Shown piece after piece: positions 9,656-20,000 of a stretch of 20,000 bases of DNA. The first letter of the stretch is position 1. The number at the start of each line of letters is the position of its first letter. The notes beneath the pieces are model-generated. The model was given only the letters and a program-made list of their open reading frames with translations, did no database searches and was not told the DNA's origin. Both the position numbers and the translations under genes were made by a program. The DNA lies in the IMG/VR virus record IMGVR_UViG_3300032073_000001; one strand, written 5' to 3'. The DNA is from an uncultured virus (IMG/VR IMGVR_UViG_3300032073_000001) (taxonomy: Duplodnaviria > Heunggongvirae > Uroviricota > Caudoviricetes).

Positions 9656-10630
9656 TTACCCCGTCATGAAGTCAATTGGATCTTCCCAATTGAGTCTTGC
9701 TTCTTCTTCTAATTTTAGTATCTCTTCGTTTGCGTCATCAAATAGTTGTCGACCGTTAAATGTCACACCTCCAGGCATTACCATACCTTCGAATTTGATT
9801 AAGTTCGCTCCCCATTGTCTTTTTATTAATGCTGTCGCGTATCTTTTCAAATAATAATCGTTATAAACATCAGTGTATGTTGCTGGATCTAGTATTCGCT
9901 GACATTCTAATATTAGATATGTTTCTCCTGCAACAGCTTCTTTTTCCCAATTCATATCAATTCTAATCGTATTTCTATGACGATTGAAATCATAATGATG
10001 ATCATCGCTATCGATAATAAGATCTACCATTGATAACCATTGTTGTGAAATTTCATAATTAACTAAGCTTCCTAAATAACCTAATGAATATATATCATTT
10101 AAGTGTAATTGATACTTGATATCAAATAAGGATGCTGTAGTTGAGGTATCACTAATTGGAAATATACGAGTTACATTTGTAACCAAATCAGGAACATCTA
10201 AATATCCTTTTTCTATATCACCAAGTGTTATACTACTTACGGTTGCAGTTGTTCCAGAATCTCCACCTGTTATTGTTTCATTTGCTGTAAATGCAGTAAC
10301 AGTTTCATGAGTAATATAAGGATAATACAATTTAGTACCGGTAGAATCTTTATGAACAACAGCAGTTGCTCCTGATGTTCCTCCAGTTATTGTTTCTCCT
10401 ACGTTAAAGTTACTTGCAACAGAAGTTGTTAATGTTAAATACGAAGCTGTTACTAAATGCTTTAAAAACACTTTTTCTACGGCATCACTGTGATATTCGT
10501 TATAAAATTGAAATGCTTCATCGATTCTGTCATCGACTTGATCATCATCAACATTAATTTCAATCACAGGATGACCTAAAGCTCTTTTGCAATAAGTTAT
10601 AAACGTCGCTCTTGAATTTGGTTTTGCCAT
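9656..10630 (-). CDS. gp13: Neck protein (T4 gp13-like) with an internal inserted domain
   Basis: MAKPNSR, YCKRALGHPVIEINVDDDQVDDRIDEA, VYNDYYLKRYATALIKRQWGANLIKFEGMVMPGGVTFNG. Confidence 0.96.
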   Translation of the reverse strand: MAKPNSRATFITYCKRALGHPVIEINVDDDQVDDRIDEAFQFYNEYHSDAVEKVFLKHLVTASYLTLTTSVASNFNVGETITGGTSGATAVVHKDSTGTKLYYPYITHETVTAFTANETITGGDSGTTATVSSITLGDIEKGYLDVPDLVTNVTRIFPISDTSTTASLFDIKYQLHLNDIYSLGYLGSLVNYEISQQWLSMVDLIIDSDDHHYDFNRHRNTIRIDMNWEKEAVAGETYLILECQRILDPATYTDVYNDYYLKRYATALIKRQWGANLIKFEGMVMPGGVTFNGRQLFDDANEEILKLEEEARLNWEDPIDFMTG

Positions 10631-10649
10631 ATTATTCTCTCTATATTCT

Positions 10650-10657
10650 TATTTATA
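10650..10657 (-). promoter_or_regulatory. T4-type late promoter TATAAATA upstream of gp13, overlapping the stop of the 398-aa ORF
   Basis: Plus-strand TATTTATA about 20 nt upstream of the gp13 ATG. Confidence 0.8.
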
Positions 10658-11849
10658 CGTCCCAATCGAGAAATACAAAATTGTATTGTACTCCACTTTC
10701 AAATGTCATACCGACAGATGGCCAAACAACATCAACATAATCATTTGATGCATCATACGCAGTTATGGTTGCATCGTCCATATCTAATACGACATAACCG
10801 CGTTGCCCAGTGTTGGTGTTCAAGTTGGTATAGTCGGTTGCAACTAACAGCTGATGCCAGCCTGCAGTACTGCTATTGCCGCTTTGCGCTGTACCACTAC
10901 TAGATGCTGAAAGACTGCCAAGTCCATTCCAATAATTATTTGTTCCACCAGTATTAAATCTTATATGTAATTTATTACCAGTTACATTTGCTGAATAATC
11001 ATTTGTAGATGATTGAAACCAGTTTCTTGTCATAAAGGCGGTAATTGCTCTATCAGAATTTCCTCCGCCTAAACCATTTTCGCCTAAACCGACATAACTT
11101 GGATTAGGCATACTGCCCATATTTTCTCCCCAACTAGAAGAAGTTGCATATCCTATATCGTATTCGTGGTTATATAAAACTGTGCCTTTCCCGCCTCCCT
11201 GAGTCCAAGTTCTATTAGTACTTTTAGCTCCGGCAACAAAATATCCACCATTCAATTGATCTAAATCGCCATTAATATCACTCGCAATACCTTGCGGCTG
11301 ATTGAAATCGCTGGCCGATATTTCTCCTTCATTAGAAACTGTACCAGAATCTTTCCATCCCGGACGTATACCCGCCCCCGGGTACATATCTGAAAATGAA
11401 ATTTCATCTGCACTGGCCAATGTTCCTTTGTATTTGGCTCTTGCAGTGCTTATCGACGGATTTGTGACCAATGCATTACCAGGAACAATACTTTGTCTAT
11501 GATAATAATATAAAAACCCGCCAAAAAAACCAGTGTAGGTTGTTTCTTGAAATGTTACAGACCAATTGGTCGCGCTATTGCCGATCGTTACATACCATAA
11601 ATAAATACTATCATCTCCGTTATACATGGTCCTCTTAGTACCCACAGTACAACCAACAGAACTAATAGTGGAGGGCGCACCTGTAGTTGTACCATATGCA
11701 TTATTATCAGCCATAGTTCTCCATATTACTAGCAACTTTTGTCCAGGCTGGACATCTTGTGTTATGTTAGCTGTAGTTGTCGGGGCAAGAGCAATTCCTG
11801 TAACGGGAGAAACTCCTACACACATGACTACTGGCGTTACTAAACTCAT
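10653..11849 (-). CDS. Putative virion / adhesin-like protein, 398 aa (Gly/Ser/Thr/Asn and aromatic rich)
   Basis: Long ORF with beta-rich structural-protein composition. Internal EISFSDMY...GEISASDF motif is followed by IGY...GSM, resembling the 159-aa ORF. ATGA overlap with the upstream ORF. Confidence 0.55.
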   Translation of the reverse strand: MSLVTPVVMCVGVSPVTGIALAPTTTANITQDVQPGQKLLVIWRTMADNNAYGTTTGAPSTISSVGCTVGTKRTMYNGDDSIYLWYVTIGNSATNWSVTFQETTYTGFFGGFLYYYHRQSIVPGNALVTNPSISTARAKYKGTLASADEISFSDMYPGAGIRPGWKDSGTVSNEGEISASDFNQPQGIASDINGDLDQLNGGYFVAGAKSTNRTWTQGGGKGTVLYNHEYDIGYATSSSWGENMGSMPNPSYVGLGENGLGGGNSDRAITAFMTRNWFQSSTNDYSANVTGNKLHIRFNTGGTNNYWNGLGSLSASSSGTAQSGNSSTAGWHQLLVATDYTNLNTNTGQRGYVVLDMDDATITAYDASNDYVDVVWPSVGMTFESGVQYNFVFLDWDV

Positions 11850-12454
11850 ATGTTAAACTCCAATTTTTTCCAAACAACCGAATTAAATGTAACATCTGAC
11901 CAAATCGGTGTTTTAAACAAATCATCAGAAGATCTTATTTCGGCTTGTACATTAACTGCATCTATATATGTTGTACCTGGTTTCATTAAACAATGCCATT
12001 TATTAACACCTAAATTTTTAAAATGTACAGCTTCTATTTTTAACCAATCTGGGTCATAATACCAAGATTTAGACCCTGCTGTGTTTTTTCTAAGCAATTC
12101 AATATGTGCCCAGAAATAATTACTTTGATCTTCTTCCTCATCTATCCAAGGTTTTTCTTCTCTTAAATTTCCTATACGTAGGCCTACTATTTTTTCTGGT
12201 GAATTAATTGGTTTTTCTATAATTACAAGAGCATGATACGTGCTCTTATTTTCTAAATTTATTGCTATGCCTCTAATTTCGTTATGCAGCTGATAATTAT
12301 AAATTTGTGCACCAGTTAAATGATTTACATCATATGTTGGTTTAGTATCATGTGATAAAGCTGGCAAAGAAGATTGATATAAACTAGAAAAAGTTCCATC
12401 ATCTATCAATGCTTGTACATCTGATGCCGTTATTTGTTTTAATTCATATTCCAT
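11846..12454 (-). CDS. Hypothetical protein, 202 aa, possible GNAT-like acyltransferase fold
   Basis: The ORF is well supported by its own late promoters and coupling to the next gene. The fold guess rests only on the strand/helix pattern ALVIIEK..IVGLRIG..FWAHIELLR..GSKSW..helix..KNLGVNKWHCLM. Confidence 0.4.
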   Translation of the reverse strand: MEYELKQITASDVQALIDDGTFSSLYQSSLPALSHDTKPTYDVNHLTGAQIYNYQLHNEIRGIAINLENKSTYHALVIIEKPINSPEKIVGLRIGNLREEKPWIDEEEDQSNYFWAHIELLRKNTAGSKSWYYDPDWLKIEAVHFKNLGVNKWHCLMKPGTTYIDAVNVQAEIRSSDDLFKTPIWSDVTFNSVVWKKLEFNI

Positions 12455-12508
12455 AGGTCTATTTATACTCAGGTTTCTTTAGTAAATCTACACTTAGATC
12501 TATTTATA
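12454..12508 (-). promoter_or_regulatory. Tandem late promoters TATAAATA (12460-12467 and 12501-12508) within a 14-bp direct repeat
   Basis: Minus strand TATAAATAGATCTA ... TATAAATAGACCTA; one mismatch, 41-bp spacing. Confidence 0.8.
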
Positions 12509-13208
12509 ATTTCCAATTTCCTGGATGCGTTTCTTTTAATTTTTTTATTTGATCGTCTGGAAATACATAACAAACATCCATATTCCATGCCAAAATAGTT
12601 TTACGAGTATCTTCTACTATTATTGGAGCACGATGTAATAGCCATGATGGAAATATTAACATATCACCGGCCTTTGCTTCTGGCCGCATTACTTCTTGAG
12701 TTTCTGGATCCAAAAATTCAGTAATATATTTTTGATCAGATACCTCTACAAAATATACTGCTGACCATTGACACCACTGATGATTATCCCAACCAATATA
12801 ATCCGCGGTACGCATTTGATGATACCACATATGCATAATATTAAATTTATAATCTAAACCGGTTATTTCAGGTTGTATATGAAAATTGGCGTGTTCTCTA
12901 AATTTGTTTTCGGCAGCATCTAAGAATATTCTTTTATAATCACACCATGGGGCTTGTTCTAATATCTTAAACCATGGCATACGCTCTAATTCTTGTCCAG
13001 ATTCATCAAAGGTATTTAATACGTCTTGATATTGCCACTCTGGAGGTAAAAATGGAGAAGAATAATGATTATGCCCGTCAAACTTACTAATACCTAAATT
13101 ATATTCTTGAGTTCCAATTTTATTTGGTAAAGTATCAAAGAATTCTAAAAGTGTTTTGTTAAGTTCTTCATGATTATCAATAGTATACTTATAAATTAGG
13201 TTCTTCAT
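12504..13208 (-). CDS. Putative 2OG-Fe(II) oxygenase (DSBH fold, TIGR02466-like), 234 aa
   Basis: MWYHQM..YIGWDNH..WSAVYFV..TEF..EAKAGDMLIFPSWLLH..RKTILAWN matches the small phage 2OG oxygenase pattern W-x-(N/Q)..HxH..S.VYY..GD...FPSWL.H..R.....N. Confidence 0.85.
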   Translation of the reverse strand: MKNLIYKYTIDNHEELNKTLLEFFDTLPNKIGTQEYNLGISKFDGHNHYSSPFLPPEWQYQDVLNTFDESGQELERMPWFKILEQAPWCDYKRIFLDAAENKFREHANFHIQPEITGLDYKFNIMHMWYHQMRTADYIGWDNHQWCQWSAVYFVEVSDQKYITEFLDPETQEVMRPEAKAGDMLIFPSWLLHRAPIIVEDTRKTILAWNMDVCYVFPDDQIKKLKETHPGNWKL

Positions 13209-14460
13209 TAAATGTCCAATCAGTAGTTTCTTCTATTTCTTTTATAAATTCCTTAGGTATATCATGATCTGCAATTACGGTTCCTGCTCCAGTTATTTTA
13301 TCATTATGATTTGTTACGCCAAAATTACTACAAACGTATTTTCCATGTACATCTATATGTAAATTGTTAGGATATGATACATTATATTTGTTATGTAAAT
13401 GTATAGGATATTCAATTGAGTTATCTTCAATAGTTATTAATAGCTTTTGAATATTTTTATTTTCCCATGCCGTTTCAAACATAGACACGTCATCAAACAT
13501 ACCATCTAAATATTCATCTCCTGTCATAAAGGTAGGTGTACTATTAAATATATCAGGCCGGACATTTAACTCTAAGAAATACCATTTATTGTCTGGAGTT
13601 ATTGCTCCGCAAAAGCTTCCTTCCCAATATTCTCCACGTTTAGCTATTTGTTTTAAAAATTTAGCTGCCTCTTTTCGTACAAGCTCATCGTATTCTTTAC
13701 TAAGAGGTTTTATATAAGATCCTAAATACCACACATTTCCATCAACTGTTTTATTTAAATTTTCACCTATAATTTGTTGTGTATGTGTTATAGCAAATTT
13801 ACCGTTAGAAACAACGAAAAAAACATTTGTTTCTAATATATCGTGCAAATATTCTTCTATATAATAATGCATATCTTTATATTTTGGATATTCTCTATTT
13901 TTAAATAATTCAATTGCACGATCTGCATCTTTTTGCGAATTCATTATACATGCAGGATTCCATATATAAGAAGGTTTTTCTATACAAGGAAATTGTAAAT
14001 CTTGACAATAATTATCATCTGAATATTTACCGCTTCTAATAATTCGAGGAACATTAAAACCCATATCATGTGCTAGAAATTTAGCATAGGCCTTATCAGT
14101 TTCTAATCTGCTTGATTCTTCAGAAGGCCCGATATATTTTACTTTATCAGCAAAATGTTCATATAGATACGCTGCAGTAGGAATACACACTTGTAAAACA
14201 TCGATATTATGTTCATCGATAAGTTTTTCAGTAATATCTATTAATTTTTTTTTAATTTCTTCATATTGTTCATCGCCATAATTAGGCATTGCGCTTAAAC
14301 AAACGATATTATTAATTTCGTTATCAATTAAATTAATACCGAAAGAAGGTTCGTATGTATATGTATCGTGAAAATTAGTATAAACAGTATGTCCAGAATT
14401 AACTAATTCTATAAGTGTGTGAAAGTGTGCCTTAGGCAAATTGTAGTTCAATATGTTCAT
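13189..14460 (-). CDS. Divergent ATP-grasp ligase related to PurD (GAR synthetase) fold, 423 aa
   Basis: IGPSEESSRLETDKAYAKFLAHDMGFNVP resembles PurD FGP..AA.LE.SK.FAK......IP. FPCIEKP, YYIEEYL and FLELNVRP match the ATP-grasp K, EE and ExNxR motifs. The PurD GxGGREHA and GPNTGGMG motifs are missing. Confidence 0.8.
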   Translation of the reverse strand: MNILNYNLPKAHFHTLIELVNSGHTVYTNFHDTYTYEPSFGINLIDNEINNIVCLSAMPNYGDEQYEEIKKKLIDITEKLIDEHNIDVLQVCIPTAAYLYEHFADKVKYIGPSEESSRLETDKAYAKFLAHDMGFNVPRIIRSGKYSDDNYCQDLQFPCIEKPSYIWNPACIMNSQKDADRAIELFKNREYPKYKDMHYYIEEYLHDILETNVFFVVSNGKFAITHTQQIIGENLNKTVDGNVWYLGSYIKPLSKEYDELVRKEAAKFLKQIAKRGEYWEGSFCGAITPDNKWYFLELNVRPDIFNSTPTFMTGDEYLDGMFDDVSMFETAWENKNIQKLLITIEDNSIEYPIHLHNKYNVSYPNNLHIDVHGKYVCSNFGVTNHNDKITGAGTVIADHDIPKEFIKEIEETTDWTFNEEPNL

Positions 14461-14474
14461 AATATTTCTTTCTG

Positions 14475-14954
14475 TTAAGTGTTAAATGCAACAGTAATAG
14501 ATGTTCCTGAGCTATTTGGTATATAAGATCCGCTAAAAATGTGGTGTGTACTACCATATGTGCCAAAAGATGATCTATTAATAGTAGTGCCATGGACTTC
14601 AACAGAAGTCCAATCAGTGGGTAATCCTGAATTCCAGACTATATAAAGACCTGTACCACCAAATCCTGTACGAAACTCATTAATTTGTGGTGTTCCGCTC
14701 AATGTATCTACTGTTCTATCATTCATAGAACCAGCACTTACACCAGCAATATATCCATAACGAGTTCCTGGTTTAGCGCTTTGTGTCCCAATTGTAAGAG
14801 TTGTCGACCATTGTGCAGATAATCCTTTAAATTCTGCCAAACCGTCTGGTGTAGATAACCCTGCGGCCGCTGCAGCAGCTCGCATAGAACCACCTCCGCC
14901 AAATTCTGCGGTTACTACACTTAATGAAGTGGGATTACTATTAGGAACTCCCAT
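14475..14954 (-). CDS. Putative tail-fibre tip adhesin (gp38-like N-terminal attachment module), 159 aa
   Basis: N-terminus ..SLSVVTAEFGGGGSMRAAAAAAGLSTPDGLAEFKGLS resembles, from memory, the T2/S16 gp38 attachment helices (M.AA....L..P..(M/L)..F.G.S). Gly/Thr/aromatic-rich C-terminal part; lies downstream of an S74-bearing fibre; AGGA SD. Confidence 0.6.
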   Translation of the reverse strand: MGVPNSNPTSLSVVTAEFGGGGSMRAAAAAAGLSTPDGLAEFKGLSAQWSTTLTIGTQSAKPGTRYGYIAGVSAGSMNDRTVDTLSGTPQINEFRTGFGGTGLYIVWNSGLPTDWTSVEVHGTTINRSSFGTYGSTHHIFSGSYIPNSSGTSITVAFNT

Positions 14955-14966
14955 GTTTTATTCCTA

Positions 14967-15254
14967 CTAACTAGCGGGTGCTATAACACCATTAGCTACT
15001 TTATGTGCGACACCTAATGCTACTTCTTCAATTCTAGCTACTGTTGCATCGGCGTCATATGTAGTACCATCAGCTTTATAACAAACGTTAACGTTTCTAG
15101 TATGAGTAAGAGCCGGAGAGTCTGAAGTAAATGTTACTATAACATCTCTAACATCATTTACTTCATCAACAGTTTCACCTTCATTATCTGGATCAGGCAC
15201 CTGTGTTGTTCTTTTACCAGTAAAGGTTTCGTCTATTTTATATGTAATTGCCAT
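14967..15254 (-). CDS. Small hypothetical protein in the tail-fibre locus (possible fibre assembly factor), 95 aa
   Basis: GAGG SD, same strand, tightly packed between the fibre and adhesin genes; function inferred only from position. Confidence 0.6.
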   Translation of the reverse strand: MAITYKIDETFTGKRTTQVPDPDNEGETVDEVNDVRDVIVTFTSDSPALTHTRNVNVCYKADGTTYDADATVARIEEVALGVAHKVANGVIAPAS

Positions 15255-15274
15255 TTTATTTTTCCTCTATTATA

Positions 15275-15451
15275 TTAGCTAAAGCAAGCATTATATATTG
15301 CTTTTACTTTTGTTGCTTCGGCAGAGACATCGCTGTCTTTGTCAAAAGTCTTTTGTGTGTTATCATCGTAATCGATAATAAGTTTATCGTCATCATCGTC
15401 GGTAGGCGTTGCAGGCCCATCGTAAAATGTTGCTGTTCTCATTGTTGCCAT
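15275..15451 (-). CDS. Small Asp-rich protein, 58 aa, translationally coupled to the tail fibre
   Basis: Manual translation MATMRTATFYDGPATPTDDDDDKLIIDYDDNTQKTFDKDSDVSAEATKVKAIYNACFS*. TAATG overlap with the fibre stop; GAGG SD within the last codons of the fibre gene; fills the gap. Confidence 0.75.
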   Translation of the reverse strand: MATMRTATFYDGPATPTDDDDDKLIIDYDDNTQKTFDKDSDVSAEATKVKAIYNACFS

Positions 15452-15766
15452 TATTTTTCCTCTAGTTTTTTCTCTAATTCTTTTACTTTATCACTTAGCT
15501 CTTTGATTGCTTCGATAAGTACACCTGTTAAATGGCCATAAGAAACACCGTATCGATCGTTTTCTTTATCATGTGTTACAACTTCAGGTACTATATCTAT
15601 GATTTCTTGAGCAATAACACCCATTCTTTCTGGGGTTACATTATTTCCTTCTGAACCAGATTCTTTAGAATCTTTCCATTCGTATGTAACACCTCTTAGT
15701 TTTTCGACCTTAGCTAAACCATTCTCAATAGTATTTATATTCTTTTTCAGCCTTCTATCAGAAGAA
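15451..15766 (-). other. Peptidase S74 autocleaving chaperone domain of the fibre
   Basis: S-D-x-R-L-K cleavage signature (SSDRRLK), GVIAQE and a terminal coiled coil. Confidence 0.9.
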
Positions 15767-18700
15767 CCTACAACATCACCGGTTGCATAAATTGCTCCTC
15801 CTACGTAAAGTGAATAACTAGAGGAAGTAGTAGACCCTGCAACAGCTAAACAAGAATTACTTCTATGCCAATACCATTGCCAACCATTTGTACCATTCCA
15901 GTCACCTCCATTACCTGCTGAATCATACATACCACCAACAACATCACCACCATTATCATGCAGTATTCCGGAATAACCACCTCTTGACCCGGCCAATCTC
16001 CAAGAACCGTAACTTCCTAATGTATTTGGGTACCAGTGAGAACCATTAATACTTGATGAATATAAACCAGATCCACCAACTTGTGTCCAGTTATTTAATT
16101 GTGAATATCCATTGGTTTCAGTTCTCATTATAATACTATTACCACTAGCGGCAGAATTCATACCATCGAGTAAGTCAGCATCAAGACCTGAACCTGAGCC
16201 ATCGTTACCAGAGGACCACATTGTAGACCAACTTCCCCAAGAGTTATTTGAAACTTGTCTGTGGTATAATTTTCCTGCTTGGTTATATTGACCGAATAAT
16301 TGCCATCCATAGTGTGTACTTGTATTGTGTCGTACTTGAAGGCCTTGAATATGTGTAGTACCTGGTGGGAAATTACTTCCTGACCAAGCATCAATAAATC
16401 CTGCACGTGGTGTAGAAGTAAATACATCGTTTAGGTTATGACCACTAGATCCTGGGAATACTCCACTAGTATTAGTTCCACGATTAAAATATGTACTATC
16501 AATGCCATCAAGTAAGTCAGCATCTAGTCCTGAACCTGAACCGTCATTTCCGTCTGTCCAAATCTTCTGCCATCCATAACCAGAACCACCATTCGCCCAC
16601 CAACCTCTAAGATATGTAACACCAGGATTACCTGCTGACATAGCCATCTGCATACCATGGAAATAACTACTGCCACTTGCATAATGCATTGCTTGAAATC
16701 CATTATAATGTGATCCGCTTGGTGGTTTTCCTGCACCACTATTCCAGTTATCTATAAATCCACAACCTCTTTGAAGTAATTCGTTAAAGGTTACATCATT
16801 ATGAGAGTTAGCACCTGTCATATAGGCATCGCCTGACGTATAATTTTGTCTATCATAATCAGTTTGGCCTGACAGTCCCGCCTTCACTTTGAAATGCTTT
16901 AAAGTCATATATCTTAGATAACCATCATCCGAACAATAAACTCTAGCAAGATCAGTAGCTACAGCCAAAGCTCCAGAAGTAGTATTAATCCAACCTGCTT
17001 GAATGTAACCATTAGAATCTGTTCTTACAACTTTGTTTACTTCGTTGTTTCTTCCAGTATGTAAATCTAAACCATCAAGTAAATTAGAGTCTGCTGCTTT
17101 AGCACCAGCTGCTAAGAAAGCAGATGCCTGGTTTCCATCAAGTAGATCAGCATCTAAGCCTGAACCTGAGCCATCATTACCTGAATCCCATATAGTTCTA
17201 AAAGCGGTCCAAGAATCTGTTGGAGAAGCACTGTTATCAGCATTTCTAACTCGTAAATAATTTCCGCCGTTTGCAGCACCATGACCAGAAAAGAGTTGGA
17301 AATCACCTCCCGCATCACTACCGCCTCTACCACCTACGTGTAGAACCGTTCCGTATTCAGGCCATCCATCACTACTTCTTACAAATGAAGTCGATATACC
17401 AACAGGAGAATAACCACTAGCCGCGGTACTTGCACTCCATTGATAATTTCCTGTAGTGGGTAATATTTTAGGCATTTGACCAGTTGGAACTGTACCAGCA
17501 TTTAAATTACTTGCACTTCGATAATATGAACCATGCTGTCCATCAAGCAAATCTGCGTCTAATGTAGAACCGGATCCATCGTTACCTACATGCCATACAT
17601 GATTACCTATAGAACCAACATGAGGAGCTGTAGTAAAATACCATGTCTTATCAATATACATGTAACCATTATTATCTGGGTGAATTTGGTATGTATCTGT
17701 TCCATCATTGGAAACCAGTCTAATTCCGCCATCCCAACTATTTGTGTGAGAATTGAACTGAACATATCCTGTATTATCAATTTGTATTCTAGGTTGTCCA
17801 TTAGTTCCAATATGTAAATCGGTATTTGAAACAGTATCAATACGTGCAGCATTTCCGGTGTGTACATATAATCTTAATTTACTATCATCTGCATCTTCAA
17901 ATAAATCTAAACGAGCATGAGAAGTACCAGAAATATTTACTCTTGCGTTCCAACTTCCATCATTACTAACTGCACCTGTATTATTACCAAATTCATTATA
18001 GACATTAGTAAAACTATTTGAACCACTAAGTGTTGCAAAAGTGCTACTTGATGGGACTGAGATATAACTTGACCAGTTGGCTTCGTTAAGAACTCGTTTT
18101 AAACCTGAACCTTCATCAACTTTGAATGTACCATTCTTAATCTTCTGGATATCCCAAGCGCCCCAAGCAGCATCTAAGAATCCGTAATTTGCTCCACTAC
18201 CATCAAAATACATCTGAATACCATGTGTGCCATCAGATCCTTGTAATACTAAACCACCGTAATCTGTATGACCCATGTTTCTAATTGTTAAACTATGAGT
18301 TGAGTCAGCGCCGACATATTGATTTTGAGAAGCACTTCCATCTAAATAAACAGCACTACCTAAGAATCTACCACTTTTTGTAATAGCAGCAACATTAGTT
18401 CCGCTATTTTTAAATACGAATCCTCTATCTGTTCCACCAGACATTTTGAAATACATATTATAATCGGATGTACTATCTAATGAATGTCTTCCAGCATTAC
18501 CATTACCTTGACTGGCCATTGCAATTGCATATGAACCACCTAAAACTGTACCTGTTCCTCCCCAGAATCCAATACCTTGACCGTCACCAGCTTCTATTGT
18601 TAAATTTCGTGCAGCAACTGCTTTTGTTTGTGTTCCCCAAGTTGATCCATCAAGATTATCTGCATCAAGTCCTGAACTTGCACCATCATTTCCGCTGTGC

Positions 18701-20000
18701 CATAATTCGACCCAGCCTCCCCATGTTCCGCCATATCGTGTTCTAAAGTATGGACCTGCATCGTTGTGTGCATATGGAATTGCAAATTGTGCCATATTTC
18801 CATCGCCATCATAACTAGCATACTCGAATGAGAATGGATGATAGTATTTTCCACTTAAGCTTGAGTCTGGGCCATTTGTTGCATTCCCATAAAGTAGAGT
18901 ATGTCCACTTCCTGAACGTGCATTTGTTGAATGATTCCAGTCTGTAGTTCCGCCAGTTGTTATGGCTCCAAAACCACCAATAATTTGGCCGTATTTTGCA
19001 TTTAATGTGTTACCTGTTCCTGAAGTTCCTAAATTGAGGTCTCCACCCATATCCAAGTTATCTCTGAGCCACATTGTTCCATCACCACGAACAATCATAT
19101 TCGTAGTAGTGTCATCTTTAAATGCGATATCTTCGCCGCCAGAAGTTCGTAAAACTAAATGTTCATCATTAGTATCTGTGGCATACATATAACCTCTAAG
19201 ATTACCAGCAGAAGTATATGCATAATAAACACCACCATTAAGCGCCTTAAAGTTTGTTCCTCTTATTTCACCTGCATTATCATGACCTAATCTTGCAAGG
19301 CCTGATAGTTGTACACCATCTACTGTATCAGCATCTAGTCCAGAACCTGAACCATCGTTAGAAGTAGTAAATAAACCTAGCTGACTTATAAAAGTTGCTG
19401 GTGTAACATATCGAATATAATCATCATTAGAAGAATATATTTTGTTAATAGTGGAAGTTGTTACACCACTAGAAGTATTAATCCAACCAAGGTGAGCATA
19501 ACCATTGTTTTGAGTTCGTAATATTGTATTTGCAGTGTTTTGACTGCTTTGAGTAGTATGTACTTGTAAACCATCAAGAGTATCTGCATCTAGACCAGAA
19601 CCTGCTCCGTCATTTCCGGCATGCCATACAGTATTACCATTAACCCTAGCTACATTTTCACTTATCTCAAAATCAGGGGTCCCAGAAACCAAGTTGTTTG
19701 ATACGTCAAATTTAAACGAATCGGGCGAACCTTCAACATAACCAAAACCGTATCCATGATGACTGGCGTTATATTGCCAAATAGGCAGCATTGAACTCCC
19801 GTGACCAGTTCCATATAGTCCAGTTGTAATAATTCTATTTGCGGTTATTAGTCCACCGCTTGTTACATTTAAATTAGCATCTATAATTGTATTACCATTT
19901 AAATATGTTAAACTATTATTATATAAATGATATGTGGCATGAACTCCGGTCTGACCAGTTCCAAATGCTCCTTTTGTTGAAGCAATACCTGTAGATAATA
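15451..20000 (-). CDS. Long modular tail fibre with knob-like domains and C-terminal peptidase S74 intramolecular chaperone; 5' end outside the window
   Basis: The frame stays open from 19791 to the window edge (LSTGIASTKGAFGTG...GHGSSM), so Met19791 is internal. Repeated GNDGSGSGLDADLLDG linkers; knob-type Q....Y.R.....W..W segments; SSDRRLKKNI..LRGVTYEWK..MGVIAQE..VPEVV..LIEAIKEL coiled-coil tail. Confidence 0.93.
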   Translation of the reverse strand, partial: LSTGIASTKGAFGTGQTGVHATYHLYNNSLTYLNGNTIIDANLNVTSGGLITANRIITTGLYGTGHGSSMLPIWQYNASHHGYGFGYVEGSPDSFKFDVSNNLVSGTPDFEISENVARVNGNTVWHAGNDGAGSGLDADTLDGLQVHTTQSSQNTANTILRTQNNGYAHLGWINTSSGVTTSTINKIYSSNDDYIRYVTPATFISQLGLFTTSNDGSGSGLDADTVDGVQLSGLARLGHDNAGEIRGTNFKALNGGVYYAYTSAGNLRGYMYATDTNDEHLVLRTSGGEDIAFKDDTTTNMIVRGDGTMWLRDNLDMGGDLNLGTSGTGNTLNAKYGQIIGGFGAITTGGTTDWNHSTNARSGSGHTLLYGNATNGPDSSLSGKYYHPFSFEYASYDGDGNMAQFAIPYAHNDAGPYFRTRYGGTWGGWVELWHSGNDGASSGLDADNLDGSTWGTQTKAVAARNLTIEAGDGQGIGFWGGTGTVLGGSYAIAMASQGNGNAGRHSLDSTSDYNMYFKMSGGTDRGFVFKNSGTNVAAITKSGRFLGSAVYLDGSASQNQYVGADSTHSLTIRNMGHTDYGGLVLQGSDGTHGIQMYFDGSGANYGFLDAAWGAWDIQKIKNGTFKVDEGSGLKRVLNEANWSSYISVPSSSTFATLSGSNSFTNVYNEFGNNTGAVSNDGSWNARVNISGTSHARLDLFEDADDSKLRLYVHTGNAARIDTVSNTDLHIGTNGQPRIQIDNTGYVQFNSHTNSWDGGIRLVSNDGTDTYQIHPDNNGYMYIDKTWYFTTAPHVGSIGNHVWHVGNDGSGSTLDADLLDGQHGSYYRSASNLNAGTVPTGQMPKILPTTGNYQWSASTAASGYSPVGISTSFVRSSDGWPEYGTVLHVGGRGGSDAGGDFQLFSGHGAANGGNYLRVRNADNSASPTDSWTAFRTIWDSGNDGSGSGLDADLLDGNQASAFLAAGAKAADSNLLDGLDLHTGRNNEVNKVVRTDSNGYIQAGWINTTSGALAVATDLARVYCSDDGYLRYMTLKHFKVKAGLSGQTDYDRQNYTSGDAYMTGANSHNDVTFNELLQRGCGFIDNWNSGAGKPPSGSHYNGFQAMHYASGSSYFHGMQMAMSAGNPGVTYLRGWWANGGSGYGWQKIWTDGNDGSGSGLDADLLDGIDSTYFNRGTNTSGVFPGSSGHNLNDVFTSTPRAGFIDAWSGSNFPPGTTHIQGLQVRHNTSTHYGWQLFGQYNQAGKLYHRQVSNNSWGSWSTMWSSGNDGSGSGLDADLLDGMNSAASGNSIIMRTETNGYSQLNNWTQVGGSGLYSSSINGSHWYPNTLGSYGSWRLAGSRGGYSGILHDNGGDVVGGMYDSAGNGGDWNGTNGWQWYWHRSNSCLAVAGSTTSSSYSLYVGGAIYATGDVVGSSDRRLKKNINTIENGLAKVEKLRGVTYEWKDSKESGSEGNNVTPERMGVIAQEIIDIVPEVVTHDKENDRYGVSYGHLTGVLIEAIKELSDKVKELEKKLEEK
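16163..19628 (-). repeat. Seven dispersed ~57-bp coding repeats, consensus W-x-x-GNDGSGSGLDADLLDG
   Basis: Copies at approximately 16163-16221, 16505-16563, 17135-17192, 17540-17597, 18647-18703, 19316-19370 and 19571-19628, e.g. ccatcaagtagatcagcatctaagcctgaacctgagccatcattacc; plus a partial AADSNLLDG near 17070-17097. Confidence 0.9.

Follow-up and report, generated by a model that had tools for sequence, protein, structure and literature searches.

A late gene cassette of a marine T4-like phage probably encodes enzymes that acylate and tailor lysines at the tips of adhesin-like proteins

The common assumption is that phages recognise their receptors through the amino-acid sequence of their fibres and adhesins. 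Virion proteins can also be altered chemically; those of mycobacteriophages undergo phage-encoded glycosylation. Outside the virion, the translation factors EF-P and eIF5A carry one lysine at the tip of a Gly/Pro-rich hairpin, and this lysine is extended by a ligase and then hydroxylated (EpmA/EpmC, hypusine). On structural proteins of marine phages, phosphorylation and acetylation have been reported (accessible text of PMC12014285). In pelagimyophages an enzyme-rich host recognition cluster has been described whose enzymes are read as modifiers of host lipopolysaccharide (accessible text of PMC7029224), and phage R2K ATP-grasps and GNATs have been treated as modifiers of host proteins (accessible text of PMC7824862). 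Here we analyse a stretch of 20,000 nucleotides (nt), referred to as the window, from an uncultured virus (IMG/VR record IMGVR_UViG_3300032073_000001). It holds a cassette in which an ATP-grasp ligase, a 2-oxoglutarate (2OG)-Fe(II) oxygenase and a protein of predicted GNAT fold are encoded alongside two adhesin-like proteins. The window belongs to the late structural region of a T4-like phage that is marine and uncultured, and the closest portal proteins of cultured phages are 57-59% identical to its own.

We propose that the phage enzymes acylate and tailor lysines at adhesin tips, and that the ATP-grasp enzyme probably modifies a lysine of the adhesin-like protein encoded next to it. Two small tail-tip proteins would be made late in infection, each with one exposed lysine in a β-hairpin or a Gly-rich loop. 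The ATP-grasp enzyme would turn a small carboxylic acid, the likeliest being an amino acid, into an acyl-phosphate and attach it to the ε-amine of Lys61 in a protein of 159 amino acids (aa). The oxygenase would then hydroxylate or otherwise oxidise the Lys61 adduct, and the GNAT protein would acylate Lys221 of a 398-aa protein. The anchor domain would dock on the fibre end exposed by S74 self-cleavage, and the decorated lysine would act as a small-molecule-like ligand for a receptor of the host, for example a transporter or a porin. What we observe directly are the folds, the catalytic residues, the gene linkage, the late promoters, the position of the lysine in a hairpin and the covariation of residue with enzyme. 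The features concerned are as follows.

14475..14954, minus strand: 159-aa adhesin-like protein, with a helical anchor and a β-sandwich head; proposed substrate of the ATP-grasp enzyme
14772..14774, minus strand: codon of Lys61 of the 159-aa protein, in the turn of the β56-60/β63-69 hairpin; proposed modified residue
13189..14460, minus strand: 423-aa ATP-grasp ligase, with a three-domain fold of the PurD/PurK/biotin-carboxylase type
12504..13208, minus strand: 234-aa 2OG-Fe(II) oxygenase (PF13759, TIGR02466-like), overlapping the 423-aa gene by 20 nt
11846..12454, minus strand: 202-aa protein of predicted GNAT fold; proposed acyltransferase acting on the 398-aa protein
10653..11849, minus strand: 398-aa adhesin-like protein, with an N-terminal domain, an internal anchor motif at about 138-182 and a head with a GGK loop; ATGA overlap with the 202-aa gene
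11187..11189, minus strand: codon of Lys221 of the 398-aa protein, in the G219-G220-K221 loop

The 423-aa protein is a member of the ATP-grasp superfamily, since the three-domain fold, the ATP lysines and the metal-binding ExN(xR) motif are all present. It has no Pfam match above cut-off, and its sequence matches are to PurD (E 1.5e-5) and biotin carboxylase. The AlphaFold2 (AF2) model (pLDDT 92) aligns with PurD over its full length (Z 25.6, rmsd 4.2, 373 residues; Foldseek TM 0.64-0.65), and PurK, PurT, an L-amino acid ligase and PylC follow at Z 20-22 (PylC 20.9). Residues K123, K162, E202, E297, N299 and R301 are invariant in 47/47 close and 8/8 diverse aligned sequences. ATP-grasp enzymes turn a carboxylate into an acyl-phosphate and transfer it to an amine, and PylC makes a lysine-Nε amide. 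The original prediction named RimK and the graspetides as examples of ATP-grasp ligation; by these searches the enzyme is not of that type, its best matches lying in the PurD/PurK/biotin carboxylase group.

As PurD is the closest match in both fold and sequence, the 423-aa protein might be a purine-synthesis auxiliary, with the oxygenase a general 2OG-consuming auxiliary gene and the position of both due to chance. The accessible text of PMC3037559, which treats cyanophage 2OG oxygenases as nitrogen-metabolism genes, agrees with such a reading. The sequence largely refutes it: TIGR00877, the model for PurD (GAR synthetase), scores 15.6 bits against a cut-off of 288, and identity to PurD structures is 12-16%. 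Additionally, the PurD substrate motifs QDHK and NTGGMG are replaced by QQII and NVWYLG in the alignment to 2yw2. Genome searches found no true cellular copy of the enzyme, the hits being confined to two contigs (L225 and L226) of one metagenome-assembled genome titled Planctomycetaceae TMED10. Both contigs carry the same phage gene set with T4-like neighbours, so they are probably phage DNA binned with this genome, which we do not take as the host. We consider a purine-synthesis role for this protein scarcely tenable.

The 159-aa protein begins with an anchor (about residues 1-47) that ends in E-F-x-G (E-F/W-x-G in the family) and is followed by the β-sandwich head. In the AF2 model (pLDDT 75) the anchor is poorly predicted and the head mostly well, and K61 lies in the turn between strands 56-60 and 63-69. 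Homologues are mostly 20-32% identical to the window protein, the orthologue in locus L002 reaching 69%. Upstream of the ATP-grasp gene, a lysine stands at +20 to +23 from the anchor motif in 30/30 distinct anchored homologues (two 5'-truncated ORFs were left unscored), and in 20 of these 30 it is the sole lysine of the head. Because the PurD motifs are gone and a lone conserved lysine lies next door, we infer that K61 is the simplest acceptor. When the ATP-grasp enzyme was modelled in complex with the adhesin head together with ATP and Mg, the scores were 0.29 and 0.04 (mark 0.32); this prediction was run without controls and counts neither way. The model of the 159-aa protein has no match in the PDB at E <= 0.001 (best Z 4.7), and its best matches in BFVD are uncharacterised or unnamed viral proteins. 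Relatives lie directly after a gene annotated as long tail fiber distal subunit in Vibrio phage PhiImVa-1 and after a fibre gene in Alteromonas phage AD45-P1.

Searches with the ATP-grasp enzyme gave 58 loci, some of them duplicates, or 59 sources when the window is counted; labels such as L002 and L012 denote loci from searches. The oxygenase cluster is found in 53 of these sources and the 159-aa homologue in 38. In 33 a protein with an HxD...H motif lies between adhesin and ligase; it has 190-210 aa (for example L012:9364-9984), is missing in the window and has a sole, weak hit to phrog_1644. An adhesin homologue is present within three ORFs upstream of 48 of the 70 ATP-grasp ORFs, and 10 others are near a contig end. 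This supports the earlier view of a late-promoter cassette in which the ATP-grasp enzyme is tied to an adhesin-like protein. The 58-, 95-, 202- and 398-aa ORFs are limited to the lineage of the window and to the L002 type, a distribution that does not favour the suggested role of the 58-aa peptide as a substrate. A graspetide pathway, in which the product is a ribosomally synthesised and post-translationally modified peptide, was rejected, since the 58-aa ORF is missing from most loci and the conserved neighbour is a folded protein of 150-220 aa.

The module had been thought to be confined to the tail-fibre locus, and this is not the case. Many copies are located away from the fibre, between genes judged from their sequences to be nrdB and exonuclease genes on one side and a lysozyme-like gene on the other. 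In 12 loci among nucleotide-metabolism genes the T4-type late promoter sequence TATAAATA is 17-24 nt upstream of an 87-88-aa gene that heads the module, and in L004 and L057 it is directly upstream of the adhesin gene. As a late promoter heads the relocated modules, the inherited unit is the adhesin and the ATP-grasp enzyme, with or without the oxygenase, and the module changes its genomic location together with a late promoter of its own. The 87-88-aa gene itself (L012:8603-8869 and 11 other loci) is conserved, has a late promoter and has no PHROG match; its product may be a structural partner of the adhesin.

A second survey started from the adhesin and was blind to the enzymes. A profile of the 159-aa family gave 392 representatives at E <= 0.001, and 26 of the 150 listed were aligned; this alignment matches the first set with an hhalign probability of 99.4%. 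It led to 585 viral stretches, the best 80 of which were used, and in these 80 the gene after the adhesin belongs to few families. Distant ATP-grasps of the same family (21-28% identity) follow the adhesins of L077, L079 and L092, all three of which have the lysine, and in two of these loci a SET methyltransferase (PF00856) comes after the ATP-grasp. The adhesin, ATP-grasp and SET trios are at L077:4001-6178 and L079:3172-5409, with no T4-like neck genes nearby. More divergent ATP-grasps, in L056 and L057, come after GK-loop proteins that the profiles overlooked.

Two further families follow Lys-tip adhesins. A pair made up of a cupin-like protein of about 235 aa and a Coq4-like protein (PF05019) does so at L068:4652-6226 and in L071, L082, L086, L090, L095, L099, L101, L120 and L137; it may be a second lysine-linked pathway. 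The cupin-like label comes from one weak match to Cupin_3 (E 0.003). A 164-aa family stands after a Lys tip as well, including in a third member, L230.

Tyr-tip adhesins are followed by a family of 260-350 aa (L064:4570-5376, L060, L063, L074, L075, L088, L091, L111, L112, L117, L131 and L146-L224), for which a dedicated search gave 80 further loci. Its W-x-G-x-K-x-D and K-x-Y motifs are invariant, and searches of PDB, Pfam, PHROG, NCBIfam and the Atlas returned no match. From the K-x-Y motifs it presumably resembles ABBA-type prenyltransferases, but as no search supports a name we leave the enzyme unnamed. In L206, L207, L221 and L223 the 88-aa gene described above also precedes a different adhesin-like protein and the Tyr-linked enzyme. 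An ORF of 63-69 aa follows Tyr-rich adhesins (L065:4585-4794, L076, L083, L084 and L089); it looks like a free-standing N-terminal part of the Tyr-linked enzyme and is perhaps a substrate-recognition element. Similar ORFs of 47-51 aa precede the cupin-like protein.

Class counts were made after dereplication at 60% identity and with a profile-aligned anchor; five anchorless clusters were skipped and three near contig ends were set aside. A lysine is present in the hairpin window in 16/16 ATP-grasp clusters, 10/11 clusters with the cupin-like and Coq4-like pair and 2/2 with the 164-aa family. It is present in 3/31 clusters with the 260-350-aa family, and 28/31 of these have tyrosine there. The chance background of a lysine within 16 residues is 0.12-0.27. 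When distinct sequences are scored in the narrow window from +19 to +24, the lysine is found in 30/30 with an ATP-grasp, 12/17 with the cupin/Coq4 pair, 2/2 with the 164-aa family and 1/40 with the Tyr-linked enzyme. A tree built without the hairpin has at least eight enzyme-class changes, and its starred branches give three independent pairs, none of which goes the opposite way. The co-variation of enzymes with adhesins that had been proposed as a check is seen for the ATP-grasp and Lys-tip adhesins, which gave no gp38 match, and for the GNAT in two lineages only.

Several points weigh against our proposal. A lysine is also present in the hairpin window of 8/30 clusters without a classified enzyme. 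The Fisher test of 16/16 versus 3/31 gives p 6e-10 but ignores kinship; the phylogeny-corrected sign test gives p 0.5, three pairs being too few to reach significance, and a single clade contains 12 of the 16 ATP-grasp clusters. No upstream adhesin match is found for 12 of the 70 ATP-grasp ORFs: nine are in a cassette with repeat and Hint-domain proteins, and the others are L057 with its divergent GK protein, L058, whose contig looks chimeric, and L145, where an anchored protein lacks a lysine in the hairpin window. The 159-aa protein is called an adhesin from its position and architecture. The head profile fails to detect the head of the 398-aa protein, the association of this protein with the GNAT comes from the DNA context of two lineages, and the 164-aa family resembles the 202-aa GNAT weakly (hhalign probability 6.6%). 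Finally, the chemistry, the substrate assignment, the location in the virion and the receptor binding are inferred.

The lysines that stand beside no classified enzyme and the non-significant corrected test would also be expected if the tip lysine bound the host unmodified, the enzymes being island genes that are inherited alongside and either change the surface of the host (superinfection exclusion) or produce a small molecule. Published readings point the same way: in their accessible text, PMC7029224 regards island glycosyltransferases as modifiers of the host O-chain and PMC7824862 regards cyanophage 2OG/cupin clusters as capsule or metabolite pathways. An unmodified lysine leaves three observations unexplained, namely the exchange of Lys for Tyr when the enzyme family changes (30/30 versus 1/40), the recurrence of lysine-type enzymes (SET, GNAT fold) beside Lys tips, and the joint movement of adhesin and enzymes under one late promoter. 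We therefore think this alternative unlikely and prefer modification of the tip lysine by the neighbouring enzymes.

The cassette that accounts for nine of the ATP-grasp ORFs without an adhesin match includes proteins with Gln-Pro-Tyr repeats, a GT8-like enzyme and a further oxygenase. Its Hint-domain protein ends in HN-GGGNKR and so again offers a Gly-flanked lysine, which is only a lead. In the Hint-domain proteins at L005:4318-5583, L008:3943-5394 and L065:4820-5818, HN is followed by a tail of GGGNKR or just one K, and splicing or cleavage could place a lysine at a fibre tip. The proximity of these ATP-grasp copies to Hint-domain proteins suits an assembly enzyme that would staple the adhesin to the fibre, linking Lys61 by an isopeptide bond to the C-terminus newly created when S74 (or Hint) cleaves itself. 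S74 cleavage of the fibre does leave a free carboxylate, and ATP-grasp chemistry is compatible with such a bond. The lysine, on the other hand, belongs to the head and stands 20-23 residues beyond the anchor; unrelated enzyme families serve this position too, or a tyrosine takes its place. Many modules are away from the fibre, and stapling leaves the oxygenase and SET partners unexplained. We regard stapling as improbable, more so than an unmodified lysine, and retain acylation of the tip lysine as the preferred reading. One side observation concerns the ATP-grasp-carrying phages: a 71-aa ORF lies near the neck genes in L005:13986-14201 and L145:8302-8517, which looks acyl-carrier-like and is a possible acyl donor.

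The partner enzymes differ in how firmly they can be named. The 234-aa protein scores 37.9 bits against PF13759 (cut-off 27), and H143, H192 and R202 are invariant in 7/7 sequences, with D141 where most relatives have His; on this sequence evidence it is a 2OG-Fe(II) oxygenase. The earlier naming of an ATP-grasp and a 2OG oxygenase therefore stands, on fold and invariant residues and on a PF13759 score above cut-off. The oxygenase is absent after the ATP-grasps of L057, L077 and L092. That it is dispensable in some branches and that a SET enzyme appears in others is what we would expect of tailoring steps on a common amide.

The possible GNAT of the original prediction is upheld for its fold, from a low-confidence model, and has no sequence-profile match. 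In the Atlas model of the 202-aa protein (pLDDT 0.60) all 10 listed structure rows are GNAT-named clusters, with TM 0.55-0.64 by query, and the protein is accordingly predicted to have a GNAT fold. No match was found in Pfam, PHROG, NCBIfam or PDB sequences. One feature-based cluster has PF00583 in 20% of its members, and one Atlas row, below the naming bar, is an Acetyltransf_8/IucA cluster. The internal anchor-type motif of the 398-aa protein scores 15.3 bits with a four-segment profile (orthologue 36.4, best of 1000 shuffles 12.6), and G-G-K221 is invariant in 6/6 homologues while the flanking residues vary. The arrangement into two adhesin-plus-enzyme units is thus matched by a conserved lysine loop in each adhesin-like protein, but the GNAT and 398-aa unit is known from two lineages only and is the less secure of the two because the head profile misses its head.

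As to the group that would be added, a terminal amine open to methylation, as in the SET branch, points to an amino acid as the donor and, for that branch, to an end group resembling betaine or carnitine. Our first guess for the branch of the window is a hydroxylated aminoacyl-lysine. An α-hydroxy-acid iron ligand on the adhesin lysine is possible but not favoured, and none of the siderophore enzymes lysine N-hydroxylase, IucB and IucA/IucC was named among the neighbours scanned. Late tailoring of receptor-binding proteins, the core of the original prediction, is strengthened and narrowed to a named residue. Its peptide-substrate and gp38 parts found no support, and the same is true of an iron-chelating ligand mimic, for which there is no direct evidence; the SET methyltransferase of the sister branch points rather to a methylated amine.

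The cassette is probably one instance of a wider design in marine phages, in which a tip residue is paired with a writer enzyme. On a broader and more tentative reading, which we put somewhat below even odds, a large family of tip adhesins of marine phages would use a chemical code: an exchangeable enzyme set would make a hairpin Lys or Tyr imitate a nutrient or metal ligand that host transporters take up. The sets that might be exchanged in this way, a suggestion we hold just as tentatively, are the ATP-grasp with a 2OG oxygenase or SET, the GNAT, the cupin-like and Coq4-like pair, and the Tyr-linked enzyme.

The layout of the cassette agrees with the original description in all seven ORFs (58, 95, 159, 423, 234, 202 and 398 aa), their coordinates and order, the 20-nt and ATGA overlaps and the late promoters, and all seven are on the minus strand. 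It is flanked by an S74-ended long fibre on one side, the likely docking partner of the small adhesin-like protein, and by a gp13-like neck gene (phrog_211) on the other. The remaining features are as follows.

15451..19791, minus strand: long tail fibre of 1446 aa, counted from the earliest start codon in frame, with a C-terminal Peptidase_S74 intramolecular chaperone (PF13884, E 1e-17)
15275..15451, minus strand: 58-aa acidic ORF with no family match, kept only in the L002 lineage; the module does without it
14967..15254, minus strand: 95-aa ORF, small fibre-associated protein; the module does without it
15732..15739, minus strand: T4-type late promoter TATAAATA within the S74 coding region, 280 nt upstream of the 58-aa ORF; equivalent site in L002
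12501-12508 (over the oxygenase stop) and 12460-12467 (just upstream of the 202-aa start), minus strand: two TATAAATA late promoters, both kept in L002
10650..10657, minus strand: TATAAATA late promoter for the neck gene gp13, over the 398-aa stop

There are eight copies of TATAAATA in the window, all on the minus strand, against 3.8 expected; at least eight were found in 7 of 200 shuffles. Four of the eight are in or beside the cassette (15732, 12501, 12460 and 10650). The copy at 15732, which had been overlooked, is upstream of the block of 58-, 95-, 159-, 423- and 234-aa genes. The copy at 12460 ends only 5 nt upstream of the 202-aa start, which suggests a leaderless message for this gene.

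A second phage lineage (L002/L003) has an identical order of cassette genes and an ATP-grasp that is 69% identical. Contigs from two sequencing runs, not flagged as a possible source of the window, cover 12820-14975 with 0 differences and 10172-13327 with 1, so the cassette is not an assembly artefact. RNA-labelled runs also contain this stretch as contigs; these are oligo-dT libraries and give no indication of transcription. Among cultured phages there is no match for the ATP-grasp, the 159-aa or 95-aa protein, the L077 ATP-grasp, the Tyr-linked enzyme or the Coq4-like protein.

If tip lysines are modified as proposed, the host range of abundant uncultured marine phages could not be read from the adhesin alone, and viruses would have an undescribed way of recognising their hosts. 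The enzymes would include new site-specific protein-lysine ligases. Some of the unexplained oxygenases, acyltransferases and ligases of phage tail regions, which the accessible texts of the papers cited here read as metabolic or host-surface genes, would gain a concrete substrate. Should the chemical-code reading hold, post-translational chemistry would help to set host range, which would not depend solely on protein sequence, and many 2OG oxygenases at present classed as auxiliary metabolic genes would instead serve to tailor virions.

In the literature covered, which leaves most subscription journals and supplements outside, we found no description of adhesin-tip modification. The nearest arrangement is the gp37-gp38 system of T2, T6 and S16, where, as here, a fibre with a self-cleaving chaperone is followed by a small separate protein that attaches through a short N-terminal part and varies in its head (accessible text of PMC7917993 and 10.64898/2026.05.12.724579). 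In contrast with gp38, residues 1-47 of the 159-aa protein contain no Trp and hence no Trp prongs, and the head is predicted to be a β-sandwich rather than a polyglycine sandwich. The accessible texts describe no dedicated modifying enzymes for gp38. Neither the 159-aa protein nor any of 26 relatives matches the gp38 family, so the membership once suggested is not supported; by analogy, the protein may work like a gp38 adhesin. The pelagimyophage cluster, too, is a variable island rich in enzymes that immediately precedes the neck genes of marine T4-like phages, but the accessible text of PMC7029224 describes no ATP-grasp and no link to an adhesin residue.

The ATP-grasp enzyme shares with PurD and PylC the full three-domain fold, the invariant ATP/Mg residues and the ExNxR motif. 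It differs from them in its low identity and replaced PurD substrate motifs, and in that the proposed acceptor is a protein lysine. EF-P and eIF5A offer a chemical parallel, although protein and ligase are unrelated and theirs is a cytoplasmic translation factor, not a virion tip protein. Modification of virion proteins by virus-encoded enzymes is, as a general phenomenon, already known. The modifications of mycobacteriophage and marine phage virion proteins mentioned above are on the capsid, portal and tail tube; in the present case a dedicated and exchangeable enzyme changes together with a single residue of a protein that putatively binds the receptor.

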